Positions 49,269 to 61,824 of a stretch of 64,000 nt of DNA are shown piece after piece. Location: the sequence record MW822008.1. The stretch is one strand, 5' to 3'. The DNA is from Escherichia phage BF17. The notes beneath the pieces are model-generated. The model did no database searches and was not told where the DNA came from. It was given only the letters and a program-made list of their open reading frames with translations. Within the stretch, counting starts at the first letter, position 1. Every line of letters starts with the position of its first letter. The translations under genes were made by a program, and so were the position numbers.

Positions 49269-49643
49269 ATGAGTATGTTAGAAATAATTGTTTCAAAAAT
49301 TCTTATTCCATTTTGGAAACCAATTTCTTTTGTATTATTAATTGGCGGTTCAGCTTATGCTGGTTGGGAAGCTAATACTTATTACAGTGGATATCAACAA
49401 AGCATAGAGCAACAAATAGCTAAAAAAGTTGATACCGCCTTGGATAAAATGCAACAAGAAAATGCAAAAAATTACCTTGAAACTAAAAAAATCATGGAAG
49501 ATAATGCTAAAGTTATTGAAACAAAGGTTCCTTTTATTGTAGAACGTGAAGTTTATAAGAATGTATGTTTAGATGAAGATGGTGTAAAAGTACTGAATGA
49601 ACTAAAACAAAATTCTCAAGCAGCGAGGAATAAATTCAAATGA
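49269..49643 (+). CDS. putative i-spanin (Rz-like)
   Basis: N-terminal TM helix then charged coiled-coil-like region; overlaps next lipoprotein gene (ATGA). Confidence 0.55.
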   Translation: MSMLEIIVSKILIPFWKPISFVLLIGGSAYAGWEANTYYSGYQQSIEQQIAKKVDTALDKMQQENAKNYLETKKIMEDNAKVIETKVPFIVEREVYKNVCLDEDGVKVLNELKQNSQAARNKFK

Positions 49644-49948
49644 AAAAATTATTAGTTCCAATGATTTCTTTTTTAATTATAAGTGGGTGTGCCGAGCAAG
49701 TAAAACTACAATCCCCCGCACCAATTAAACAAGAAATTCTGTTAGAAAGATGTGATGATGATACACCTCTACCACAAAAAATTATGATTGACAAAAATGG
49801 TTTTAAAGGTTATGATGGTGCAGAAATTCTTAAAGTACTTACTCGTTGGGATGCAGTCTACAATGAATGTGCTTTAAAACACGACGCATTGATTAAAACT
49901 ATTCGTGATTTACAAGGTAAAGATATTAAAATCAATATCAAGGAATAA
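49640..49948 (+). CDS. putative o-spanin (Rz1-like lipoprotein)
   Basis: Signal peptide with lipobox IISGC; overlaps upstream gene. Confidence 0.55.
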   Translation: MKKLLVPMISFLIISGCAEQVKLQSPAPIKQEILLERCDDDTPLPQKIMIDKNGFKGYDGAEILKVLTRWDAVYNECALKHDALIKTIRDLQGKDIKINIKE

Positions 49949-49949
49949 A

Positions 49950-50561
49950 ATGAACAAATATCATGTTTACTATACGACAAAATTATCACTTCTTGAAGAA
50001 TTAAATCAACGAAGTACTAAGATGAAACGCTACACTTTAAATGGTATTACTTTTCGATATTTCCCACAAAAAGTTCTTACTTTTGTTAAGAATCCAAAAT
50101 GCGTGGCATGTGGGATTGAAGCTACTGAAGTACGCATTGAACGTTCATTATGTTCTGATCCAGTATATGGTAAACCACATTTAAATGTATATGCTGTATG
50201 TGGTCTTTATGAAGTTTTAATGACAGTTGACCATAATCATCTGGCATCTAAGGGTGGACCTGATTTAGAGTCAAACTTTAATACTATGTGCTCCAGATGT
50301 AATCAACTACGTTCGAATAAAACTGAAACAGTTGATGAGTTTCTTGAGAAAGTTAAAGGTCGTAATCTTCTCCAAGAACATATGAATAATTTCTTTAATG
50401 TACAAAAAAAGAAAAATAACATTGACAAGTCGAAACTACTAGAAGAACGTAGGTTACGTCAAGAATTATGGGAAACCGATCATCTATGGCATGTTCGAGA
50501 GTTTGGTCGTCATATGAAAGCTTTGAAAAAAGAACAGAAGAAATTGAATAAACATGATTGA
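49950..50561 (+). CDS. HNH endonuclease
   Basis: ORF 49905..50561 trimmed to ATG after upstream stop; DHNH ... N ... CSRCN motif with flanking cysteines. Confidence 0.6.
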   Translation: MNKYHVYYTTKLSLLEELNQRSTKMKRYTLNGITFRYFPQKVLTFVKNPKCVACGIEATEVRIERSLCSDPVYGKPHLNVYAVCGLYEVLMTVDHNHLASKGGPDLESNFNTMCSRCNQLRSNKTETVDEFLEKVKGRNLLQEHMNNFFNVQKKKNNIDKSKLLEERRLRQELWETDHLWHVREFGRHMKALKKEQKKLNKHD

Positions 50562-57764: not shown

Positions 57765-58109
57765 ATGAAATACATCGACAAAGGTACAGTTGAAACGCAG
57801 TACTGGAATATTCATATTGCTGGTGATATCCAAACAGCAAGAGAGTACACAAGAAAGTTCACATTCAATCTTGGTTTTTGTGTACAATTGATTCCGTGTG
57901 AATACATCTACACGGGTGGTCTTGAAAGTGGAATGTGTGCTCGTATTATTCAGTACCCACGCTTTCCAAAAGAAGAAGTATATCTCAACCGAGATGTATT
58001 AAACTATGCTAAGGGTTTAGCTGAAGAGTTGTGTCAAAAGAGTTTTACTATTGAGCGAAACAATGATACAATCTATTATGAAAGTGCCAACCCTTTACAC
58101 AAGAAATGA
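57765..58109 (+). CDS. hypothetical protein
   Basis: ORF 57753..58109 trimmed to ATG after GGAG. Confidence 0.5.
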   Translation: MKYIDKGTVETQYWNIHIAGDIQTAREYTRKFTFNLGFCVQLIPCEYIYTGGLESGMCARIIQYPRFPKEEVYLNRDVLNYAKGLAEELCQKSFTIERNNDTIYYESANPLHKK

Positions 58110-58120
58110 AAGGAAAATAT

Positions 58121-58252
58121 ATGAATGGACTAAAAAAGTTTGGTAAAGATTTTCTAAAGTGCATCCGTTATACATACGATGCCAACCCTGAAATGACTGC
58201 CATCGTGGGTGTGTTTATTACACTCGTTGTATTAAGCTTTATTGTGGTGTAA
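58121..58252 (+). CDS. small membrane protein (43 aa)
   Basis: ORF not in track; AAGGAAAA SD-like sequence; C-terminal hydrophobic helix. Confidence 0.4.
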   Translation: MNGLKKFGKDFLKCIRYTYDANPEMTAIVGVFITLVVLSFIVV

Positions 58253-58255
58253 AAT

Positions 58256-58459
58256 ATGATTGAAATTAATGCTGATGTATATTGTAGTGCATCACCCAAC
58301 TACTTCATTTATGCACTAAGTACATTTGGGGAAACTGAAGGTGAAACTTTTGTTTTAGTAGATAATACTACATGGTACAAAACAAGTAATAAAATTCCGA
58401 AAGATGTTTTGGAAACTTATGTTCGTATTGAAAATAAAAACATATATGTAAATTTATAG
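58256..58459 (+). CDS. hypothetical protein
   Basis: 67-aa ORF. Confidence 0.4.
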   Translation: MIEINADVYCSASPNYFIYALSTFGETEGETFVLVDNTTWYKTSNKIPKDVLETYVRIENKNIYVNL

Positions 58460-58466
58460 GTAAAAT

Positions 58467-58877
58467 ATGATTGAAATGGAAGGAACTCTGGTGTATGATC
58501 CAGATCGTGGCACTATGAAAAAGAAGAAGGACTTCTGGTTAGTACTACAACTTCCATTGCAGTTGGTTCGATACTACCAGTACTTCATCAGAACTAACTT
58601 ACATATTGATATTAAAGACCCACAATGGGGAGCACATGTCAGTATCGTTCGTGGTGAAGTGCCACCAAATCCAGAGTACTGGAAAAAGTACGATGGAATG
58701 AAAGTTAAGATTAAGTTCGATCCTTTCATCGAAGAAGTAAAAGACAATAAGAAACCTGGGTCATTCTTTATCATAGAGTTTGAAGATGATTTCATTGCAC
58801 AAATTCGTGATGAACTTGGTTTAGCATCTAAATATTTCAAATATCACATCACCATTGGTAGAACATACTACGATTAG
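58467..58877 (+). CDS. 2H phosphoesterase-family protein (two H-x-S/T motifs)
   Basis: 136 aa; GAHVSIV and KYHITIG motifs at the spacing expected for the 2H (LigT/CPDase) fold. Confidence 0.55.
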   Translation: MIEMEGTLVYDPDRGTMKKKKDFWLVLQLPLQLVRYYQYFIRTNLHIDIKDPQWGAHVSIVRGEVPPNPEYWKKYDGMKVKIKFDPFIEEVKDNKKPGSFFIIEFEDDFIAQIRDELGLASKYFKYHITIGRTYYD

Positions 58878-58900
58878 TGTGGATATTTGGTAAATAGGTC

Positions 58901-58928
58901 TTGATATAACTAAAAAGTATGCTATACT
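58901..58928 (+). promoter_or_regulatory. candidate promoter
   Basis: TTGATA - 16 nt - TATACT upstream of lysozyme-like gene. Confidence 0.35.
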
Positions 58929-59044
58929 ACTTAAATGTTCCAAAGAACAACTGAGTACTGTAGAAAGTCCAATGAGGCTTTTGCAAATGGCCTCTTTGCC
59001 CTCTTTGTGATTGCTCATTGTTAACAACCAACAAAGGAGGCGTT

Positions 59045-59971
59045 TTGAAAAAAGCGAAAAAAGCACTGAAAACTAAAATTGCCATAGGCGTGTTAGTTTC
59101 ATCAGCCCTATTCGCTGCGATTGGATTTTATGGTTTTTCTCAAAGTGATCGTGCATCATCATTAGACGAAAGTCAGGTGCATAATTTAAAACCACAAGTT
59201 ACGCAAATTCAAAAGCAGGAACTACCACAGGTATCAGTACCAAAAGCAGTTCCAAGCAGCGAGAAACATTATACGGTTCAACCTGGAGATAGTTATTATT
59301 CTATTGCACAGAAATTTAAACCTAAAAATGTACAGATTGAAGATTATGTCATTTTGTTGAAGAACATCAACTTAAATGCAACTCTTCATACTTCTCAGGG
59401 TATCTTTATCCCAACAAAAGAGGATTTGAAGAACGTATTGTTACCAGATGTGACTGTACTGTTTGATTATAAAGATCCAGAAATTGTCAATCACATCAAA
59501 GAAGCTGAAGGTTCTATTGAATTTCAGTCCAAGAACAAACGACGTTTACTTGGTGGGAAAGTTGGAGTTCCTTTCCACAATTCTAAATTTCATCCCTATA
59601 AGGACATGAAAGGTAATTATACAATTGGTTATGGGCATTATTTGGGTAAGAAAGATTCTGATGCAATGAAGTACAGAAACGGGATTACCAAAGCACAGGC
59701 CAACAAACTTTTAATGCAAGATATGAAAAGGACTTACGAGGACTTTACACTATTGATGCAGAAGAAAGATGCAGTTAATCTGACAAAAGAACAGCAGCGT
59801 ATCCTGTTTGAAATGTCATACACAATGGGCGTTGATAAGTTGGCAACATTTAACAAACTATGGAAAAGTGTTAAAATGGATAACCCTAAGAAATTCAAGA
59901 AAGAAATCATGAATTCCTTGTGGTATCGCCAAGTTACAAACAGAGCGGATTTGTTGTTAAGCTCACTCTAA
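59045..59971 (+). CDS. membrane-anchored LysM-domain lysozyme (T4 lysozyme-like, GH24)
   Basis: ORF 59018..59971; probable TTG start after AAGGAGG; N-terminal hydrophobic helix; LysM motif YTVQPGDSYYSIAQKF; catalytic region E...YKD..G.YTIGYGH like T4 lysozyme. Confidence 0.7.
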   Translation: MKKAKKALKTKIAIGVLVSSALFAAIGFYGFSQSDRASSLDESQVHNLKPQVTQIQKQELPQVSVPKAVPSSEKHYTVQPGDSYYSIAQKFKPKNVQIEDYVILLKNINLNATLHTSQGIFIPTKEDLKNVLLPDVTVLFDYKDPEIVNHIKEAEGSIEFQSKNKRRLLGGKVGVPFHNSKFHPYKDMKGNYTIGYGHYLGKKDSDAMKYRNGITKAQANKLLMQDMKRTYEDFTLLMQKKDAVNLTKEQQRILFEMSYTMGVDKLATFNKLWKSVKMDNPKKFKKEIMNSLWYRQVTNRADLLLSSL

Positions 59972-59986
59972 AAAGGTAGGTAAATT

Positions 59987-60319
59987 ATGCTAAATCTAGT
60001 TATCCAAGGTAATGTTGATATTACTCCAGCAATCAATGACGCAATTCATGCTGAAGCAAATGCACTAACGAAGTTTAGTGATTCTTCAGTACTGCATATT
60101 GGTGTTCATGTGAAGAAAGAGCATAAGAATCAATATTTCGTAACTTTAACATCAGGCGGTAAGAGTGTTACAGCCGATGATGCAGATTTATACAAAGCAA
60201 TTGGTGATTCATTTGAAAAAATGGAAACTGTCTTAGGTAAAGACAAAAGCATCAAATTGTATCGCCGTAACCACCCCGAACATCCAGTTCAAGAAGACTT
60301 GACTGAAGACGAAGAGTAA
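59987..60319 (+). CDS. hpf: ribosome hibernation factor / RaiA-like (S30AE family)
   Basis: 110 aa; I.GNVDIT, GG...A..DLY.AI pattern and acidic C-terminal tail resemble HPF/YfiA. Confidence 0.65.
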   Translation: MLNLVIQGNVDITPAINDAIHAEANALTKFSDSSVLHIGVHVKKEHKNQYFVTLTSGGKSVTADDADLYKAIGDSFEKMETVLGKDKSIKLYRRNHPEHPVQEDLTEDEE

Positions 60320-60327
60320 GATATAAT
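60299..60327 (+). promoter_or_regulatory. sigma70-type promoter
   Basis: TTGACT - 17 nt - TATAAT spanning stop codon of hpf-like gene. Confidence 0.5.
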
Positions 60328-60330
60328 AAA

Positions 60331-60358
60331 GGGACAGAGATTATTCTGTCCCTTTTCT
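60331..60358 (+). terminator. rho-independent terminator
   Basis: GGGACAGA/TCTGTCCC 8-bp stem then TTTTCTT. Confidence 0.65.
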
Positions 60359-60373
60359 TATGGAGTTTTAATT

Positions 60374-60790
60374 ATGAATTATGTTTGGGCAGATGTAGTA
60401 AAATCTCTCGTATCAACACATGATGTTGATTTACCAGATAGTCTGGTATTTAACAGATGGTACTATCCAAACCCAGAGGACTGTAACGTTGGAATTGGAT
60501 TTTTTATTAATGATAAATCTAATTTGTTTGGATTAATTGAAGATGAGACAAAATCCAACCTTATATTCTCGATTGAGTTGAATGCTGATCACATAAAATA
60601 CTACACCAATAAAATGGACGAAGACGATGGAGATGTTATAATCCCAGCAGAAATAGACGAAGCTTCATTTTTTCAGTTATCATTGATTTATGATCTATCT
60701 AACATTACTTATGATAATGTGAAAGACCTTTTTATATTGTACAATAAAATGTATAATTACTTTTTAAGACCTTTTTATATTGTACAATAA
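60374..60790 (+). CDS. hypothetical protein (3' end within tandem duplication)
   Basis: 138-aa ORF; last 7 codons supplied by second copy of 43-bp repeat. Confidence 0.5.
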   Translation: MNYVWADVVKSLVSTHDVDLPDSLVFNRWYYPNPEDCNVGIGFFINDKSNLFGLIEDETKSNLIFSIELNADHIKYYTNKMDEDDGDVIIPAEIDEASFFQLSLIYDLSNITYDNVKDLFILYNKMYNYFLRPFYIVQ

Positions 60791-60809
60791 AATGTATAAT
60801 TACTTTTTA
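60724..60809 (+). repeat. perfect 43-bp tandem duplication (2 copies)
   Basis: AGACCTTTTTATATTGTACAATAAAATGTATAATTACTTTTTA repeated head-to-tail. Confidence 0.9.
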
Positions 60810-60825
60810 TAACAGAGGAATTGTA

Positions 60826-61011
60826 ATGGAATATACCATATGTGTAATTGTATGTATCATAGCCTTACTCGCAGGAGTTGGTGTGATGATTTACTGTGAT
60901 GCGGAACCAAGTACTGAAGTAGGTACAACCATCACACTTAAACCTGGTGTTAAAATTAATGATACCTATTGCTACAATCCAAACACAAACCGCTATGAGA
61001 TTTGTTTATGA
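60826..61011 (+). CDS. small membrane protein
   Basis: 61 aa, N-terminal hydrophobic helix. Confidence 0.45.
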   Translation: MEYTICVIVCIIALLAGVGVMIYCDAEPSTEVGTTITLKPGVKINDTYCYNPNTNRYEICL

Positions 61012-61415
61012 GAACATTCAACATTGATTATATAATTGATTCGATTGCAGAACATATGAAAAACATAAGTAAAAACGAGCCTGGTTTTTACTTCAACTTA
61101 GATAAACTCCATCGCAATACCAATGTATCTAGTTTTAATCGTGCTAAGAAACTTTACATCCGTATACATAACCTTTGGTACAGTGACGATACGTTGATGA
61201 TAGATATTACTGTTGATGAAGACATAACATTAAGATACATTGACGATTTTAAATCAGATGATATTCGTGCTGGATCATTACCAATTGATGCTTCATATGA
61301 AGAATATCTGCAATACCAGTTCATTGATGACACATTTGGATTTGACTTTGATCTATATAATAGTATAATGAACGTATACCATATATACGAAAGGAATTTG
61401 AATGGACATTCGTAA
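61002..61415 (+). CDS. hypothetical protein
   Basis: 137-aa ORF. Confidence 0.5.
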   Translation: MFMRTFNIDYIIDSIAEHMKNISKNEPGFYFNLDKLHRNTNVSSFNRAKKLYIRIHNLWYSDDTLMIDITVDEDITLRYIDDFKSDDIRAGSLPIDASYEEYLQYQFIDDTFGFDFDLYNSIMNVYHIYERNLNGHS

Positions 61416-61824
61416 AATACCAAATTTCCACAGTACATTAAGGTTCTTTTCTGAACAAGAAATCAGTACTGAAAGACGTGGCTTGATTTCATACAATCAT
61501 CATCGTGTTATGTACACTAATCATTTCCAGGGTACAGTTCGTATTAAATTTCGTAATGCACTCGACGACAATGATGAATTGTTAATTTTACTACGAAAAA
61601 GTAAGATAGAATTGACATACGCAACTCACCATATTGAAAGTGAGTTGATGTGGCACACACTATCAAAAAAAGAAGGGTCATTACCAGTTGATGATAATGG
61701 ACCAGAAACACTTGATCAGTACATGTTCATTGATGATACATTTAGTATTGACTATCCATCATTTCAGTGTATACTAGCTATACATAAAAAATATTACGAC
61801 CGTCTACGTGACAGATTAATTTAA
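61402..61824 (+). CDS. hypothetical protein
   Basis: 140-aa ORF. Confidence 0.5.
   Translation: MDIRKIPNFHSTLRFFSEQEISTERRGLISYNHHRVMYTNHFQGTVRIKFRNALDDNDELLILLRKSKIELTYATHHIESELMWHTLSKKEGSLPVDDNGPETLDQYMFIDDTFSIDYPSFQCILAIHKKYYDRLRDRLI

Follow-up and report, generated by a model that had tools for sequence, protein, structure and literature searches.

A predicted membrane-anchored LysM lysozyme in Escherichia phage BF17 and other RaK2-like jumbo phages

A 64,000-nt stretch of the genome of Escherichia phage BF17 (MW822008.1; hereafter the window) encodes, towards its 3' end, a lysozyme of the T4 type (family GH24) in which a hydrophobic N-terminal helix and a LysM domain precede the catalytic domain. 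With about as much confidence as doubt, we propose that the gene specifies a non-virion, exported lysozyme of RaK2-like jumbo phages, that is, a Sec-inserted, N-in/C-out, membrane-tethered periplasmic muramidase that would be used in lysis without holin-mediated export. The gene and its layout of transmembrane segment, LysM and lysozyme domain are already annotated and have been in print since 2017, and the finding is a re-discovery. Buttimer et al. 2017 (PMC5259590) described CBB_187 (35.5 kDa) and its homologs GAP32 gp180, 121Q gp532 and RaK2 gp506 as proteins with an N-terminal transmembrane segment (predicted by TMHMM in CBB_187), a weak LysM and a lysozyme domain, named CBB_187 a predicted endolysin and likened it to the signal-anchor-release (SAR) endolysins P1 Lyz and phiKMV gp45. 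RaK2 'gp506' is probably ORF029 in the numbering of the RaK2 paper (Simoliunas et al. 2013, PMC3622015), and 121Q gene 532 lies under a blastn match to window 58940-59047 at 89.6% identity. The window protein is an ortholog of this family, with the same N-terminal transmembrane segment, weak LysM, C-terminal lysozyme and mass of ~35 kDa, and shows no essential difference from it.

Profile, catalytic residues and fold all identify the protein as a GH24 lysozyme, for which muramidase activity is predicted. The Pfam Phage_lysozyme profile (PF00959) matches aa 182-288 (E 2e-11, 44.5 bits, cutoff 22.3) and also matches 34/34 family members; the motif PYKDMKGNYTIGYGH lies within this region at aa 184-198. 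An AlphaFold2 model built on the 34-sequence alignment has a predicted local distance difference test score (pLDDT) of ~90 for aa 73-308 and <50 for aa 1-72, and a Foldseek search against the PDB placed T4 lysozyme (T4L) at the top and also retrieved the T4 gp5 lysozyme domain (probability 1.0, ~25% identity, TM-score 0.60-0.65 normalised to T4L). When the family profile is aligned to T4L, with its catalytic residues E11, D20 and T26, D187 corresponds to D20 and T193 to T26. The catalytic Glu, E155, sits in an h..hKEAEG helix, 31 residues before the Asp instead of 8 (E-x31-D-x5-T), and E155, D187 and T193 are invariant across the 34 sequences, down to 46% identity. These results bear out the T4-type catalytic region that a first-pass annotation, made from the letters alone, had recognised. 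The protein thus shares its fold and catalytic triad with T4 gpe and the gp5 tail lysozyme domain, and its phage resembles T4 in encoding several GH24 paralogs, one of them in the tail hub and another soluble (~162 aa); T4 differs in having no membrane-anchored, LysM-bearing copy, and the E-to-D loop is 22-23 residues longer in the window protein.

The LysM motif ahead of the catalytic domain, also proposed at first pass, holds up as well. Pfam LysM (PF01476) scores 22.3 bits over aa 76-92 (E 1e-4, cutoff 20.9), a partial match that covers the first 17 of 43 profile positions only, and the profile is matched in 21/34 family members with a best E of 1e-6. AlphaFold2 folds aa 75-121 into a beta-alpha-alpha-beta unit (strands at aa 75-77 and 119-121, helices at aa 84-91 and 98-108). 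An anchor and a LysM in front of the GH24 domain make the architecture unlike that of T4 gpe, as had been noted.

The N-terminal hydrophobic segment of the earlier description corresponds to aa 12-30 (IAIGVLVSSALFAAIGFYG; Kyte-Doolittle mean 2.01). Together with the +6 N-terminal tail this anchor is kept in 34/34 family members, and A24, G27 and G30 are nearly invariant within the helix. The Lys-rich tail and the helix would direct Sec-dependent insertion with the N terminus in the cytoplasm and the LysM and GH24 domains in the periplasm, and such export would give the enzyme access to its substrate without holin-mediated export. Beyond the membrane, a disordered linker of ~40 residues may allow the LysM to bind and the E155/D187/T193 site to cut host peptidoglycan, either while tethered or after conditional release; this linker, of variable length in the family (33-58 aa), would bring the sacculus within range of the LysM-lysozyme module. 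The protein most likely adds to host lysis with a spanin pair encoded upstream.

Distant relatives support this topology. Searched exhaustively with HMMER, 1.84 billion representatives yielded 11 clusters at E<=1e-30, all of them LysM+GH24 proteins of 289-405 aa, and in 4 of the 11 the helix is internal (aa 48-66, 81-99, 83-101 and 96-114), behind N-terminal domains of 47-95 aa. Two of these proteins, P0075 (helix aa 83-101) and P0077 (helix aa 96-114), have N-terminal domains that are mutually homologous (BLASTP E 6e-10) and are therefore real coding sequence; these extra domains (~80-95 aa, presumably cytoplasmic) matched no Pfam family. The extended members are encoded on contigs L013 (23-1225, P0075), L014 (229-1446, P0072) and L015 (6329-7513, P0077). 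The N-terminal domain of P0072 was set aside as firm support for having no significant similarity to that of P0075, so that only P0075 and P0077 serve as firm evidence of a cytoplasmic domain. A helix that follows a cytoplasmic domain of 80-95 aa would have to be a stable N-in/C-out anchor in those relatives, neither a cleaved signal peptide nor a SAR segment that flips out, and by homology to P0075 and P0077 the window protein is probably type II anchored too.

These relatives bear directly on the first-pass suggestion of a SAR endolysin, the same analogy that the CBB authors drew (PMC5259590), in which a weakly hydrophobic helix leaves the membrane on depolarisation by a pinholin and the enzyme is released and activated. 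The composition of the helix is SAR-like: it is 47% G/A/S/T, and its crude Hessa sum of +0.86 is near those of P1 Lyz (+0.68) and R21 (+0.78) and unlike that of lambda Rz (-2.46). Glu is also tolerated inside the helix of some homologs. Like the window protein, P1 Lyz and R21 of phage 21 are GH24 muramidases with an E/D/T site, for which Sec-dependent, holin-independent export is expected, and their N-terminal hydrophobic segments are on average about as hydrophobic as its own. However, weak hydrophobicity is not a conserved property of the family, because its helices span crude Hessa sums from -2.5 to +5.1 (26-47% G/A/S/T), several being strongly hydrophobic. Unlike P1 Lyz and R21, the window protein has a +6 tail, a 40-aa linker plus LysM between helix and enzyme, no Cys and no adjacent pinholin, and its relatives have large N-terminal cytoplasmic domains of 80-95 aa before the helix. 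With 123 residues, the LysM domain among them, between the helix and E155, refolding of the helix into the active site in the manner of R21 is excluded, and the lack of Cys makes P1-type disulfide caging impossible. The E-x31-D-x5-T spacing also departs from the E-x8-D-x5-T given for SAR endolysins of class II (bioRxiv 10.64898/2026.09.09.750462), and none of the 10 small membrane open reading frames (ORFs) of the window matched a pinholin, holin or releasin family. The tail itself is a further difficulty: according to Chamblee et al. 2022 (PMC9239132), two Lys in the tail of the Mu SAR endolysin gp22 already make its release dependent on the gp25 releasin. Taken together, we regard a canonical SAR endolysin as unlikely.

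Mu gp22 also resembles the window protein in being a membrane-held endolysin with a basic cytoplasmic tail and no recognised holin beside its gene; the two differ in catalytic family and architecture, and a DUF2730/releasin homolog is absent among the small membrane ORFs of the window. Two further groups share single features with the family. The jumbo phage endolysins KZ144 and EL188 (Briers et al. 2007, as cited in PMC5259590) carry a wall-binding domain N-terminal to the catalytic domain, unusual for phages with Gram-negative hosts, but they are soluble, with a PG_binding_1-type domain, a transglycosylase and no membrane anchor. The C-terminally anchored endolysins, of Hafnia phage Enc34 (PMC8943055) and of the wider group (as cited in bioRxiv 10.64898/2026.09.09.750462), have a non-SAR transmembrane anchor as well, but at the opposite end, with another catalytic family and no LysM.

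A secreted endolysin of the Lys44 type is a further alternative, in which signal peptidase would cleave the helix behind its conserved AA(A) to give a soluble periplasmic LysM-lysozyme, restrained by the energised membrane as in some Gram-positive phages. The positive n-region, the hydrophobic core and the nearly invariant small residues A24, G27 and G30 would suit a cleavable signal peptide, and the distant member P0073 has a short, typical-looking one. But a hydrophobic stretch of ~20 residues is more than signal peptides usually have, Phe occupies the would-be -3 position in the window protein, and relatives carry the helix internally. We consider such a secreted endolysin very unlikely.

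The other reading offered at first pass was a virion-associated hydrolase; that the protein is a virion-borne peptidoglycan hydrolase used at entry we now consider extremely improbable. In favour of this reading, the catalytic domain and the tail-hub lysozyme are paralogs, and the gene is labelled 'tail lysozyme' in some GenBank records. However, the phAPEC6 ortholog gp293 was explicitly undetected by mass spectrometry (MS) of virions in which the 96-kDa tail lysozyme gp241 was detected (PMC7247149). CBB_187 is likewise missing from the virion MS table of CBB (Table 4), which jumps from CBB_183 to CBB_201 (PMC5259590), and the fENko-Kae01 ortholog ENKO_215 is without the note 'identified with LC-MS/MS analysis' that a nearby gene carries. 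An N-terminal membrane anchor and a site outside the structural modules also misfit a virion protein, and Pfam recognised no structural domain in the lysozyme protein.

The other lysozymes of these genomes may point to a different division of labour. By tblastn, each RaK2-like genome has three GH24 places. Besides the ortholog of the window gene, UE-S1 encodes an 887-aa gp5-like baseplate hub/tail lysozyme and, adjoining it, a 162-aa T4-type lysozyme (300051-300539) with a gp25-like gene behind it. Identity with the window protein is 34% for the 162-aa lysozyme and 29% for the C terminus of the 887-aa hub protein; a lengthened Glu-to-Asp loop is common to all three paralogs and is longest in the window protein. 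Purified LysUE1, as the 162-aa protein is called, has muralytic activity on EDTA-treated cells (PMC12805682). An accessory role for the anchored protein can be drawn from this: expressed from an early or middle sigma-70-type transcript, it would stay tethered and loosen or modify the sacculus locally as a periplasmic peptidoglycan remodeller, and lysis would be left to the 162-aa paralog, a T-like holin and the spanins. The demonstrated activity of the soluble paralog speaks for it, as do a weak T-holin-like candidate in fEgEco12, the stable-anchor features, the low-efficiency start codon, the sigma-70-like promoter, and a neighbourhood of non-structural metabolism and translation genes with probable co-transcription of a hibernation-factor homolog. 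On the other side, the 162-aa gene lies inside the baseplate module beside the tail-hub lysozyme, so its product may have an assembly-related role, and HHpred supports the T-like holin candidate only weakly (E 2.6). We know of no precedent in phages for accessory wall remodelling, which also counts against this role. Furthermore, induction of the CBB ortholog inhibits growth of E. coli (data not shown in that paper, PMC5259590), and such toxicity fits a lytic enzyme. We consider accessory remodelling possible but doubtful.

Several of the same observations weigh against our own proposal of a lysis enzyme. For every family member, export, topology, muralytic activity and the role in lysis are predicted, and signal peptidase may cleave the short-tailed members. 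The sigma-70-like promoter and the nucleotide- and translation-gene neighbourhood could mean early expression, which would be awkward for a lysis enzyme. The soluble 162-aa paralog, present in every genome, competes seriously for the part of main endolysin, and because it is muralytic and a weak T-like holin candidate exists, these two may form a T4-style lysis set with the spanins, independently of the membrane-anchored gene.

The start of the gene is well defined. The mechanical ORF spans 59018-59971, and the TTG at 59045-59047 lies in the same frame, 4 nt behind the AAGGAGG Shine-Dalgarno sequence (59034-59040), as the first-pass annotation had supposed. Orthologs from other genera start at the residue homologous to this TTG, each behind a strong Shine-Dalgarno sequence, with TTG in five, GTG in four and ATG in one; TTG is found in Asteriusvirus and Eneladusvirus, GTG in EJP2, Hallingskeid, Munch and fENko-Kae01, and ATG in K64-1 only. 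An alternative start at TTG 59018 (317 aa) was rejected, as it is without a Shine-Dalgarno sequence and the ATG and GTG orthologs have their first codon at the position homologous to 59045. Gene calls of 317-319 aa in public records (proteins P0001, P0003 and P0005; window 59018-59044) are over-extensions of the true 308-aa product via the upstream in-frame TTG. Non-ATG starts are used by 9/10 lysozyme orthologs, yet by only 3/50 neighbouring annotated genes; from this the weak start codon looks maintained, though the orthologs are non-independent samples. The persistent non-ATG start may keep output of the lysozyme low or controlled, possibly together with a conserved 5' element.

This element (Table 1) lies in the 167-nt spacer ahead of the gene, which measures 100-170 nt in relatives. 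Its 27 nt are conserved at the DNA level among genera whose lysozymes are ~50-57% identical, and the remaining spacer has diverged. By blastn it occurs in one place per genome, each time ahead of the lysozyme gene, and in 9 loci the 10-mer TAGAAAGTCC has a single copy, which lies 83-99 nt ahead of the start codon. It may serve as an operator, as an RNA element or as a processing site. A known RNA family was rejected as its identity, the Rfam search having given no match better than E 2. A reiterated phage promoter was rejected as well: an exact 11-mer of the element is unique in the window (one exact copy in 64 kb), and the number of near-matches (20, against 12.5 +/- 3.9 expected) is what chance would give. 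Most relatives have a small palindrome, CAAAG-N3-CTTTG, within the element, and the short hairpin that overlaps its 3' part in the window is found at the same place in K64-1 as GTGGC/GCCAC, a compensatory change. An upstream mini-ORF (ATG 58972) was discarded, given that a 1-nt indel breaks its frame in UE-S1 and the ATG is missing in Munch and EJP2. Better copies of the promoter-like sequence in the spacer are present in UE-S1 (TTGACT...TATAAT) and K64-1 (TTGACA-17-TAAAAT).

In T4 gene e, the Shine-Dalgarno sequence is masked in the leader RNA. Among leader folds of six orthologs, the Shine-Dalgarno sequence is sequestered in EJP2, Yen9-03, K64-1 and Munch (z -2.9 to -5.5), and not in the window phage (z -0.67). 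In a partition-function control with 50 genes of vB_Ec-M-J, the lysozyme leader ranked 33/50 (paired probability 0.48; median 0.51). On both counts, masking by the 5' untranslated region in the manner of T4 gene e is rejected for the window phage.

Table 1 Features of the lysozyme locus and of the spanin genes in the window
Feature	Position	Strand	Details
i-spanin (Rz-like, N-terminal transmembrane segment)	49269..49643	+	phrog_1152 E 7e-29; 'Rz-like spanin' in vB_Ec-M-J
o-spanin candidate, lipobox LIISGC	49640..49948	+	overlaps i-spanin stop by 4 nt; 'Rz-like spanin' in vB_Ec-M-J
Sigma-70-like promoter candidate, TTGATA-16 nt-TATACT with TG extension	58901..58928	+	10/12 matches; number of sites in region not above shuffles; putative function
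Conserved single-copy non-coding 27-nt element, TGTAGAAAGTCCAATGAGGCTTTTGCA	58959..58985	+	alignment of 10 phages, several genera
Short hairpin GAGGC-11 nt-GCCTC, overlapping 3' part of conserved element	58974..58994	+	read from sequence; seen in RNA folds
Shine-Dalgarno sequence AAGGAGG, 4 nt ahead of start codon	59034..59040	+	AAGGAG(G/A) kept in 10/10 orthologous loci
Lysozyme coding sequence (predicted membrane-anchored LysM-GH24), 308 aa, TTG start	59045..59971	+	35.2 kDa, pI 9.7, no Cys; phrog_15410 full-length match E 1.5e-163
Predicted cytoplasmic tail, aa 1-11, MKKAKKALKTK	59045..59077	+	6 Lys, no acidic residue, net +6; topology predicted by positive-inside rule
Predicted transmembrane segment, aa 12-31, IAIGVLVSSALFAAIGFYGF	59078..59137	+	Kyte-Doolittle 2.01; crude Hessa sum +0.86; 47% G/A/S/T
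Disordered linker, aa 32-72, rich in Q/S/V/T/K/P	59138..59260	+	pLDDT <50; length 33-58 aa in family, with indels
LysM domain (beta-alpha-alpha-beta), aa 73-122	59261..59410	+	Pfam and AlphaFold2
GH24 / T4-type lysozyme domain, aa 144-308	59474..59968	+	E155 (59507-59509), D187 (59603-59605), T193 (59621-59623); conserved insertion between E and D
HPF/RaiA-like (Ribosomal_S30AE) ribosome hibernation factor homolog	59987..60319	+	PF02482 E 3e-10; 15 nt downstream of lysozyme
Terminator-like hairpin, AAAGGGACAGA-6 nt-TCTGTCCCTTT then TTCTT	60328..60355	+	terminator annotated at same place in UE-S1

Over window 58000-61000 the sequence is 99.2% identical to Escherichia phage vB_Ec-M-J, which places the source among the Asteriusvirus jumbo coliphages, and ~30 further members (121Q, PBECO4, phAPEC6 and UE-S1 among them) are 84-98% identical over the same interval. 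The lysozyme ORF is annotated as EcMJ_264 'lysozyme' in vB_Ec-M-J, UES1_480 'LysM peptidoglycan-binding domain-containing protein' in UE-S1 and gp293c 'lysozyme' in phAPEC6, with a coding sequence of the same 927 nt annotated in all three; the vB_Ec-M-J protein is 100% identical to the window protein across the aligned aa 15-308. In total, the family was found in 70 phage records and is limited to RaK2-like jumbo myoviruses. Contigs of the distant clusters match the synteny of the window: either an HPF-like gene follows the lysozyme, or genes for a T4 gp13-like neck protein and a 916-aa sheath protein lie a few kb further along.

The neighbours of the lysozyme gene are a 2H-phosphoesterase-like gene, the HPF-like gene, a tRNA nucleotidyltransferase, a Nudix gene and a thymidine kinase, with no structural module. 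The HPF-like gene is probably co-transcribed with the lysozyme, and the pair of lysozyme and S30AE genes recurs in metagenomic relatives that are 37-38% identical (L013, L014). Just upstream, a 136-aa ORF (58467-58877, +) has a sub-threshold Pfam match to 2H-SAK (2H-phosphoesterase). Its identity as an Acb1-like anti-CBASS nuclease was rejected: the Pfam match is below threshold, phmmer against the PDB gave nothing, and the label comes from HHpred only, in the fEgEco12 supplement, where it is given to the ortholog. A protein of 48 aa that has a transmembrane segment at its C terminus (58106-58252, +; phrog_37784) holds its place 2-3 genes ahead of the lysozyme in K64-1, Munch, pEa_SNUABM_50, Hallingskeid and fENko-Kae01. 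Further downstream, the adjacent ORFs 61002-61415 and 61402-61824 (+), of ~140 aa each, have a common C-terminal motif ...LP(I/V)D...Y..Y.FIDDTF... and look like tandem paralogs.

The remaining lysis functions agree with what had been noted from the sequence. The spanin pair lies 9.1 kb upstream of the lysozyme gene, and the first-pass annotation was also right that no holin is near: among the 10 small membrane ORFs of the window, PHROGs and Pfam recognised no holin, pinholin or releasin family. Outside the window, ~128 kb away, the fEgEco12 supplement lists a 220-aa protein (246852-247514) with the weak HHpred match to the T4 T holin considered above. RaK2 has been described as having three lysozyme genes, with homologs of the T holin and RI absent (PMC3622015). 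An HNH endonuclease ORF (49905-50561, +) overlaps the end of the o-spanin gene, and vB_Ec-M-J differs from the window by an indel of ~0.6 kb between spanins and lysozyme.

The value of this analysis lies in confirmation and in sharper testable questions, namely stable tether versus release, the division of roles with the soluble paralog, and the function of the conserved element ahead of the gene. More speculatively, and we think rather improbably, the family could represent a distinct mode of endolysin deployment: a permanently tethered muramidase with a linker and LysM clamp, throttled by a non-ATG start and a 27-nt cis element and co-expressed with a hibernation-factor homolog, serving as a holin-independent lysis device or a non-lytic wall remodeller specific to RaK2-like jumbo phages. 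If the protein is the true endolysin of these phages, their Gram-negative hosts would be lysed by an exported, wall-binding, membrane-tethered lysozyme, outside both the holin-dependent and the classical SAR schemes. Such a scheme would extend the known lysis strategies by one variant and provide a LysM-bearing Gram-negative lysin for enzybiotic engineering.

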